DNA from: an uncultured archaeon
GTDB lineage: Archaea; Asgardarchaeota; Thorarchaeia; Thorarchaeales; Thorarchaeaceae
Length of the DNA: 20,575 nucleotides
Direction of reading: 5' to 3'
Assembly: GCA_964458565.1 (NCBI GenBank)
Contig: CAYWJO010000045.1
Coordinates: forward strand, 1 to 20,575
In this document: positions 20,094 to 20,575 of the stretch, piece after piece
Layout of the letters: the number at the start of each line of letters is the position of its first letter
Numbering within the stretch: position 1 is the stretch's first letter
Notes under the pieces: generated by a model
The model's input: only the letters and a program-made list of their open reading frames with translations
Told to the model about the DNA's origin: nothing
The model's database searches: none
Translations under genes and position numbers: made by a program

Positions 20094-20575
20094 ATGTCAA
20101 GTAAAGATAAGGAGCACCTAAACCTAGTGGTAATCGGCCACGTCGACCACGGCAAAAGCACGATGACAGGCCGATTGCTCTATGAGACAGGTGCCGTAGA
20201 TGAACGTACGTTTCAAGCTCACAAGGCAGAGGCTGAAAAGCTGGGACGTCCATCCTGGATCGCGCAGAGATTTCCTCTCGCGAGGGGAAGCTTGGGCGTT
20301 CGCGCTAGACAGGCTCAAAGAGGAACGGGAAAGAGGCCTTACAATCGATATCGCCTTCTTCAAATTCTTGACTGACAAATACTACTACACAATTATCGAT
20401 GCCCCTGGTCATAAAGATTTCATTAGCGCTGCGTGATTTCCACTCAGCGGTGAAAAAAATATGATCACGGGAGCTTCGCAAGCTGATGTAGCATTACTTG
20501 TCGTGTCTGCAAAGAAAGGAGAGTTCGAGGCTGGTATTGGCCCCGGTGGTCAGACCAAGGAGCATGCATATCTTG
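20094..20575 (+). CDS. tuf: Elongation factor 1-alpha, 5' part, spliced: join(20094..20258,20290..20425,20456..>20575)
   Basis: [53 protein letters not shown]...GQTKEH. The frame is continuous only after removing two inserts. The gene runs off the end of the window. Confidence 0.93.
20259..20289 (+). other. EF-1alpha mRNA intron 1 (31 nt, BHB/BHL type)
   Basis: Inner hairpin TCGCG-C-AGAG-ATTTC-CTCT-CGCGA; central helix TCCT/GGGG; bulges GG|A and AA|G; 9-bp exon-exon helix 20244-20252/20293-20301. Removal corrects the +1 frameshift. Confidence 0.88.
20426..20455 (+). other. EF-1alpha mRNA intron 2 (30 nt, BHB type)
   Basis: Inner hairpin CGCTG-C-GTG-ATTTC-CAC-T-CAGCG; central helix TCAT/GTGA; bulges TA|G and AA|A. 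It contains an in-frame TGA, and removal restores DFIKNMITG. Confidence 0.9.

Follow-up and report, generated by a model that had tools for sequence, protein, structure and literature searches.

At the 3' end of a 20,575 nt stretch of archaeal DNA (contig CAYWJO010000045.1 of assembly GCA_964458565.1; the whole stretch is called the window below), the gene for the translation factor EF-1alpha appears in three fragments. This arrangement raises the question of whether the gene is decayed or whether the interrupting sequences are removed from its mRNA. The initial annotation, which was made from the DNA letters, advanced the latter scenario and assumed cleavage at BHB motifs by the splicing endonuclease EndA and ligation by RtcB. 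Our analysis of the locus, of its relatives and of the source genome (G000) makes it very likely that both inserts are BHB introns in the coding region of the EF-1alpha mRNA, which are spliced by EndA and RtcB. That cleavage and ligation proceed in the cell is suggested by the insert boundaries, by conservation, covariation and selection, and by the presence of the enzymes.

G000 is a 3.7 Mb genome (93% complete) of an Asgard archaeon (Thorarchaeota). The Asgard origin, which had been put forward as a possibility, was borne out by the closest named EF-1alpha loci (84-90% identity), all of which belong to Candidatus Thorarchaeota or Promethearchaeota MAGs; the nearest loci place the host among the Thorarchaeota.

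The EF-1alpha gene is interrupted by two short inserts

The gene is located on the plus strand. A Shine-Dalgarno-like GGTG (20080-20083) was read directly 10 nt 5' of the ATG and may function as such, and a ACGTGGTG block 5' of the start is kept in most relatives. Exon 1 (20094-20258) comprises 55 codons, extends from MSSKDKEH to KLGRPSW, involves the G1 P-loop GHVDHGKS and is collinear with intact orthologs. After KLGRPSW (20258) the EF-1alpha consensus is lost and it comes back in the +1 frame at 20290. It breaks a second time at 20425 and resumes at 20456. The first putative mini-intron (20259-20289, plus strand) thus consists of 31 nt, is inserted in phase 0 and shifts the frame (+1). The second one (20426-20455, plus strand) consists of 30 nt, is inserted in phase 1 and stays in frame, and it carries a TGA at 20434-20436. 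Exon 2 between them (20290-20425, plus strand) contains G2 and G3 and ends with DAPGHKDFI and the first base of a Lys codon. The three EF-1alpha pieces were matched separately by Pfam GTP_EFTU, and the domains of the family are PF00009, PF03144 and PF03143.

Exon 3 starts at 20456 on the plus strand, and the fragment visible there is not the end of the gene. The window stops at a 100-N scaffold gap (20575), and the gene continues to a stop codon at contig position 21609-21611. The gap is flanked by a 55-nt repeat (20521-20575, without strand), which is an assembly overlap and not biology, and it is bridged without break by the Logan contigs L142 and L143. Since the gene is uninterrupted beyond the gap up to its stop, there are exactly two inserts and the predicted spliced product has 434 amino acids. 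The predicted spliced junctions are CCATCCTGG↓GCTTGGGCG for insert 1 and GATTTCATTA↓AAAATATG (TTCATTA↓AAAATATG) for insert 2; here and below, the arrow marks the cut or junction.

When we aligned the DNA with EF-1alpha genes of 23 relatives, as the initial annotation had proposed, we observed clean gaps of 31 and 30 nt at TGG↓GCT and ATY A↓AR. Among 23 genomes of the same family and one of the same order, the gene is uninterrupted in 21. Across both junctions the spliced G000 product is identical to the uninterrupted protein of G005. The uninterrupted metagenomic protein P0002 is identical to the joined G000 exons over its N-terminal 117 residues and 95% identical in its C-terminal part. These data agree with the proposal that removal of 20259-20289 and 20426-20455 joins the three fragments; coordinates and sequences are as claimed, the product matches the orthologs, and the exons are otherwise undamaged, with no further defect up to the stop codon.

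Both inserts can be folded into BHB motifs

EndA cuts a BHB motif twice, in each case 2 nt 3' of a strand of the central 4-bp helix. For insert 2 such a motif is found at 20406-20467 on the plus strand (fold, z = -3.3). Its exon-exon helix consists of a distal part of 8 bp (20406-20413/20460-20467) and two proximal pairs (20418-20419/20457-20458). The central helix (20420-20423, UCAU/20450-20453, GUGA) is framed by the bulges 20424-20426 (UA↓G) and 20454-20456 (AA↓A), and the inner hairpin (20427-20449) has a stem of 5+3 bp and an AUUUC loop. The motif of insert 1 (20244-20301, plus strand; fold with z = -2.2 and direct reading) involves a 9-bp outer exon-exon helix (20244-20252/20293-20301), a central helix with two G-U pairs (20253-20256, UCCU/20284-20287, GGGG) and an inner hairpin (20260-20283) with the same AUUUC loop. 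In the minimum-energy fold the register is 1 nt off from UCCU/GGGG, which is the register giving the correct cut. Its 5' bulge (20257-20259, GG↓A) is canonical, and the 3' bulge (20288-20292, AA↓GCU) is enlarged to 5 nt. Thus, when two bulges on opposite strands and a 4-bp helix between them are taken as the measure of membership, insert 2 is a canonical 3-4-3 BHB, and insert 1, owing to the 5-nt 3' bulge before its 9-bp outer helix, is a relaxed HBh' motif.

The initial annotation had stated that each cut falls after the second nucleotide of a 3-nt bulge. Insert 2 obeys this statement at both bulges, whereas insert 1 does so at its 5' bulge only, its 3' bulge being 5 nt long. The more important statement, that the boundaries derived from the BHB rule coincide with those required by the protein, stood up to comparison with the intron-less orthologs, where the agreement was exact for both inserts. 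For a fixed pair of boundaries the rule, defined here as 4 central pairs and at least 5 inner pairs, is obeyed by chance at about 1.8e-4 of the G000 positions; in EF-1alpha it is obeyed twice.

Insertion sites and structural conservation among relatives

The survey of insertion sites covered all 86 genomes of the family, plus public assemblies. Insert 1 resides at site A, between W55 and A56 in the codon count of G000. Among the 86 genomes it was found in G000 only, and it is precisely absent from the 85 others as well as from a sister lineage (L144-L147). Site C, the position of insert 2, lies inside the Lys codon after DFI and is occupied in G000, G009, G022 and G079, which represent four genera. 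Further carriers in public assemblies are L144-L147 and L150, so that site C is represented by a total of seven distinct sequences from at least four genera. A third site, B, was detected in another genus (G094; L124, G094:C6), where a 30-nt insert is located inside DKY↓YYT. Its motif has a palindromic central helix (GUAC/GUAC) and the bulges UA↓A and AA↓U, and its hairpin is unrelated to the G000 introns. The boundaries predicted by the two-nucleotide rule were exact in these genomes as well: at site C it yields TTC ATY AAR AAY ATG (FIKNM) in G009, G022 and G079 despite different bulges and stems, and at site B of G094 it restores DKYYYT.

Over the seven distinct site-C sequences, 92.9% of the cells are paired, compared with 30-57% after sliding of the 3' partners. 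All cells of the central helix are paired (100%), and two pairs of the inner stem change on both sides (CG/UA; UA/CG/AU). This covariation suggests that the structure has been maintained in evolution, and it is supportive rather than conclusive because of the small number of sequences and their relatedness. Insert 1 represents a single haplotype and hence has no covariation support. The exon segment GGTCATAAAGA, which forms one strand of the distal exon-exon helix at site C, is present in 7/7 intron-bearing and in 0/25 intron-less distinct genes, and the intron-less genes use other synonymous codons in its place. This distribution suggests that the structure constrains the exon, that the segment is co-inherited or co-converted with the intron, or that both apply.

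Similar inserts in tRNA genes and other protein genes

ARAGORN returned only 32 tRNA genes for G000, most of which are interrupted, and the credible introns at canonical positions have a length of 29-34 nt. The 30-nt intron of tRNA-Thr(GGU) on contig C7 shares its dot-bracket structure with an insert in the actin gene (see below), and tRNA-Ala(CGC) exhibits the GAUUUCC loop of both EF-1alpha inserts. A default tRNA scan of the window returned nothing; Rfam detected two over-long tRNA genes there. The first one, tRNA-Lys(UUU) (5162-5266, plus strand, 105 nt), is interrupted 3' of the anticodon loop, a non-canonical position, by a 31-nt mini-intron (5206-5236) with the central helix ACCU/GGGU and a 10-bp inner stem, and was miscalled by ARAGORN as 'tRNA-Stop(tta)' with a 25-nt intron. 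The second one (959-1092, minus strand, 134 nt, Rfam 35.8 bits) was called Ser(tga) with a 37-nt intron by ARAGORN; its length exceeds what a single intron would explain, so that two or more are probable. On contig C39 (178-210, plus strand) a hairpin with a GATTTCC loop splits a sequence resembling a tRNA T-arm (GGAGGTTCGAGCC...). It may be a T-loop intron but does not follow the strict rule.

Three other protein genes of G000 carry comparable inserts. In the actin gene, 30 nt (G000:C1:109606-109635, minus strand) with the central helix CCAG/CUGG and the bulges AA↓U and UA↓A interrupt TFQ↓KMW. In ahcY, which encodes S-adenosylhomocysteine hydrolase, removal of 31 nt (G000:C1:187509-187539, plus strand; one central-helix mismatch, 6-bp outer helix) restores GHPSE↓VMDLSF, and in oppB removal of 31 nt (G000:C4:91013-91043, plus strand; 3/4 central pairs, 8-bp inner stem) restores MRNNL↓IDVMTEDY. 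In these three genes the predicted boundaries follow from the cut rule, which restores the conserved motif in each of them. At least four protein genes of G000, EF-1alpha among them, thus appear to be interrupted. Taken together, the comparisons suggest that the EF-1alpha inserts belong to a stereotyped 30-nt mini-intron module, which is common to tRNA genes and other protein genes of this lineage.

The initial annotation had proposed a genome-wide scan for further BHB inserts. Our scan of G000, which combined motif geometry with ORF fusion and used shifted cuts as decoys, gave no clear excess (for instance 15 candidates vs 7-10 decoys for 28-33 nt and flanks of 200 codons or more on either side). 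Ordinary gene boundaries make up most of its output, and it is blind to short exons of the EF-1alpha type; it therefore provides no estimate of the number of mRNA introns. A loose scan for hairpins with an AUUUY loop across G000 yielded mostly noise. We also built a covariance model (R1) from eight 37-nt seeds, leaving out EF-1alpha intron 1. When the whole genome was searched, R1 recovered the seeds and one insignificant match (C54:15464-15500), which has no open frame on that strand. With filters off it placed EF-1alpha intron 1 at exactly 20253-20290 (E = 1.4) and missed ahcY and oppB. R1 is too seed-specific.

Splicing machinery and putative mechanism

The G000 genome encodes an EndA of 187 amino acids, in which both Pfam domains and the catalytic Y/H/K context are present, and a beta-like paralog of 212 amino acids, which also has both domains, lacks the catalytic His and shares 33% identity with the former. 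RtcB is encoded as well (589 bits). Asgard EndA has been described as an (alpha-beta)2 enzyme with an L1 loop, which is linked to relaxed-BHB specificity (PMC5829648), and the predicted pair of an alpha and a beta-like subunit in G000 fits this description.

According to the mechanism that we propose, each insert would fold in the pre-mRNA into a hairpin of about 9 bp. A 4-bp helix between two bulges on opposite strands would be formed by the 3' end of the insert and the exon nucleotides directly preceding the insert, and an (alpha-beta)2-type EndA would cut 2 nt into each bulge. RtcB would then ligate the exons, and the 30-31-nt intron would probably be circularised. In this case the 434-amino acid EF-1alpha would be encoded by the spliced mRNA only, and translation of the unspliced mRNA would stop after 93 codons.

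The inserts might in principle be removed from the mRNA by an endonuclease other than EndA and the exons be resealed by RtcB or another ligase, as in IRE1/RtcB splicing and in animal SOS splicing. One might invoke such an enzyme for insert 1, ahcY and oppB, which depart from the canonical BHB by an enlarged bulge or a central-helix mismatch, and for the stereotyped hairpin, which all inserts have in common, which frequently contains a GAUU(U)CC loop and which is not demanded by the BHB rule. However, (alpha-beta)2 EndAs with an L1 loop are reported to accept relaxed motifs (PMC5829648), the cut sites obeyed the EndA two-nucleotide rule in every case examined, and the module is also present in tRNA genes, for which EndA is the established enzyme. 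Nothing calls for a different endonuclease, and we consider this route improbable.

Selection, copy number and alternative explanations

A second explanation is that the gene is a pseudogene or a disabled allele and that EF-1alpha function is provided by another copy or by intron-less cells in the population. The unspliced gene is indeed untranslatable, the G000 assembly is 93% complete and its close relative P0002 (95% identical) is uninterrupted. Selection argues against this scenario. Between intron-bearing genes the dN/dS ratio is 0.03-0.05 at pS values of 0.58-0.81 (near saturation), and intron-free pairs behave in the same way. These values suggest that the interrupted EF-1alpha genes are under strong purifying selection, and the exons show no other defect. 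An intact second copy, which the initial annotation had named together with purely unspliced transcripts as a finding against splicing, was not found in G000, where the absence is not absolute at 93% completeness, nor in G009 (97% complete), the single copy of which carries the site-C intron. The other GTP_EFTU loci of G000 are EF-2-like, aIF5B-like and aIF2gamma-like, and in addition there are two distant EF-1alpha-like paralogs, which share at most about 38% identity and are present in every relative.

Both inserts were base-for-base identical in five independent assemblies (the MAG, two Logan assemblies from separate runs and two JGI metagenome contigs). A pattern scan of metagenomes across the site-C junction matched 3 contigs, all of which were insert-bearing DNA, and the collections searched contained no intron-less allele with the G000 exon sequence. 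The protein collection had no full-length protein identical to the spliced G000 product. A single haplotype in five assemblies and a gene under selection do not fit a disabled allele, and we regard this explanation as very improbable.

Still less probable is a bypass of the inserts by the ribosome, either by hopping, as in phage T4 gene 60, or by a frameshift combined with stop read-through. Each insert contains a stable hairpin, and in insert 2 a stop codon follows soon after the take-off point, which resembles gene 60. However, no matched pair of take-off and landing codons yields the conserved SWAWAF or DFIKNM. The sole TGG-to-TGG hop over insert 1 would remove the conserved AW, and insert 2 has no second ATT before AAA AAT ATG. 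Moreover, a bypass leaves the 4-bp exon helix, the covariation and the identical module in tRNA genes unexplained.

An assembly or sequencing artefact, at which the scaffold gap inside EF-1alpha at the window end and the contigs of several relatives ending in the 5' part of the gene might hint, is hardly conceivable, since the inserts agree base for base among the MAG, Logan and JGI assemblies and insert 2 recurs with sequence variation in other genera. Group I and group II introns have a ribozyme core of hundreds of nucleotides. Self-splicing introns of these types were rejected as candidates because the inserts measure 30-31 nt, and no Rfam match was obtained in 19900-20575 at E <= 1.

Comparison with known systems

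A BHB intron in crenarchaeal cbf5 pre-mRNA was reportedly described by Watanabe in 2002. In Crenarchaeota the cbf5 pre-mRNA carries its BHB intron inside the coding sequence (Yokobori 2009, PMC2738675). The putative EF-1alpha introns resemble this case in that an archaeal coding sequence is interrupted by a short BHB-type intron, in that the lineage has (alpha-beta)2 EndA, in their patchy gain and loss, and presumably in the EndA/ligase mechanism. They differ in host and lineage, since EF-1alpha is an essential GTPase translation factor of an Asgard archaeon and the cbf5 intron belongs to Desulfurococcales and Sulfolobales. They also differ in number, as EF-1alpha of G000 has two introns and the family as a whole has three sites, and in that the intron is a 30-31-nt module common to tRNA genes and other mRNAs of the genome. 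Splicing of cbf5 has been shown experimentally, whereas we infer that of EF-1alpha.

Another paper explicitly names cbf5 as the only archaeal gene with a BHB intron in its coding sequence and adds an intron in the 5' UTR of the Haloferax volcanii HVO_1309 mRNA (PMC7714728). There, too, the tRNA splicing endonuclease acts on an mRNA. However, that intron is located in a UTR, which makes the protein independent of splicing, and the Haloferax enzyme is a euryarchaeal alpha'2 with strict BHB recognition.

Archaeal tRNA introns occur at canonical and non-canonical positions, and Asgard tRNA genes are heavily interrupted (bioRxiv 10.64898/2026.10.13.758758; PMC5829648). The EF-1alpha inserts share size, hairpin architecture, cut rule and loop motif with the tRNA introns of G000, and both types involve repeated gains where a BHB can form. 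In contrast to tRNA introns, the EF-1alpha inserts reside in an mRNA, and the genetic code limits what the exon halves of their motifs can be. Because of the mRNA host, splicing would have to precede translation or compete with it.

The HAC1/XBP1 mRNA undergoes unconventional splicing by IRE1 and a tRNA ligase or RtcB. In animal mRNAs, transposons are removed by RTCB-dependent 'SOS splicing' (PMC12779559). Both systems share with our proposal the protein-only, structure-guided removal of a short hairpin-bounded mRNA insert followed by RtcB-type ligation, which is an analogy and not membership. They differ in the nuclease (IRE1 or the SOS nuclease and not EndA) and in the motif.

In the literature searched, no archaeal BHB introns in coding sequences were described beyond crenarchaeal cbf5. 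For Asgard archaea it contained nothing on mRNA introns of this type, and the preprint on Asgard tRNA introns (bioRxiv 10.64898/2026.10.13.758758) does not include mRNAs. Judged from the sequences, what is new would thus be the host gene and the phylum of an endonuclease-type mRNA intron, the presence of several sites per gene and a module common with tRNAs. If the mRNA is spliced as proposed, an essential and highly expressed Asgard translation factor would depend on the tRNA-splicing machinery, and endonuclease-type mRNA splicing would reach beyond the single crenarchaeal gene cbf5 into core genes of the archaeal lineage nearest to eukaryotes. One would then have to ask how splicing and the coupled processes of transcription and translation are coordinated. 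A connection of the EF-1alpha inserts to the origin of introns is speculation.

There is also a practical consequence. The expectation that annotation misreads the interrupted genes was confirmed by public calls of 331 and 359 amino acids, which start at or inside the inserts. Including a third call of 292 amino acids, these compare with a protein of 434 amino acids, and the 359-amino acid call of G094 starts at an ATG within the putative intron. Gene callers truncate or split such genes, which distorts marker-gene sets, estimates of completeness and EF-1alpha-based phylogenies.

Gain and loss of the inserts

The sister lineage L144-L147 is separated from G000 by a dS of about 1.1. It lacks insert 1 and carries insert 2 with structure-preserving changes. 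Thus, insert 1 was either gained recently or lost in the sister lineage. Close sister pairs also differ from each other: G009 carries the site-C intron and G023 does not, and G094 carries the site-B intron and G006 does not. In a tree of the 3' part of EF-1alpha the site-C carriers appear in at least four places, and since the deep nodes are unresolved, gains and losses at this site are not countable from the tree. The site-C introns of G000 and G079 differ at 1/30 positions, compared with a difference of about 73% at the synonymous sites of the two genes. A fuzzy search of G000 (up to 5 mismatches) yielded no source copies of four mRNA introns elsewhere in the genome. Taken together, these data suggest that the inserts are gained and lost over short evolutionary time, with insert 1 confined to a species-level lineage and insert 2 patchy across genera. 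Such recent, patchy gains and losses at three sites of one gene offer a tractable system for studying how introns arrive.

One may go further and imagine the 30-nt hairpin as a mobile module, which in Asgard archaea at large has colonised genes for tRNA and rRNA as well as many protein genes with high expression. In this scenario mRNA splicing by protein enzymes would be routine in the nearest prokaryotic relatives of eukaryotes, and the expression of core factors such as EF-1alpha would be coupled to EndA/RtcB. The near identity of the site-C intron and its flanking exon tract in G000 and G079, whose synonymous sites are otherwise saturated, would then go back to lateral spread with co-conversion and not to constraint alone. 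We consider this extended scenario possible but rather doubtful.

Three minor observations concern the gene in other relatives. In four of them a contig end cuts off EF-1alpha within the first third of the gene (residues ~50-57 or 104-128) and near the intron sites: L126 (G070), L127 (G091), L128/L129 (G048) and L130/L131 (G062). According to its coordinates, L058 (JBHLOD010000195.1) is the same contig as L127. Strain heterogeneity in intron content may have broken the assembly graph at these positions. The EF-1alpha gene of G053 (L133, G053:C24) contains two simple frameshifts in its 3' half and no inserted sequence, which looks like a sequencing error or a real pseudogene and not like an intron. 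Finally, two genomes of one genus carry partial copies of the EF-1alpha 3' end (G001:C2:44563-45549 and G016:C30:10769-11158) 3-6 kb downstream of the intact gene. These copies share 87-89% identity with query residues ~182-311, one of them contains a TGA, and they may be the trace of an element that has inserted at the EF-1alpha 3' end.
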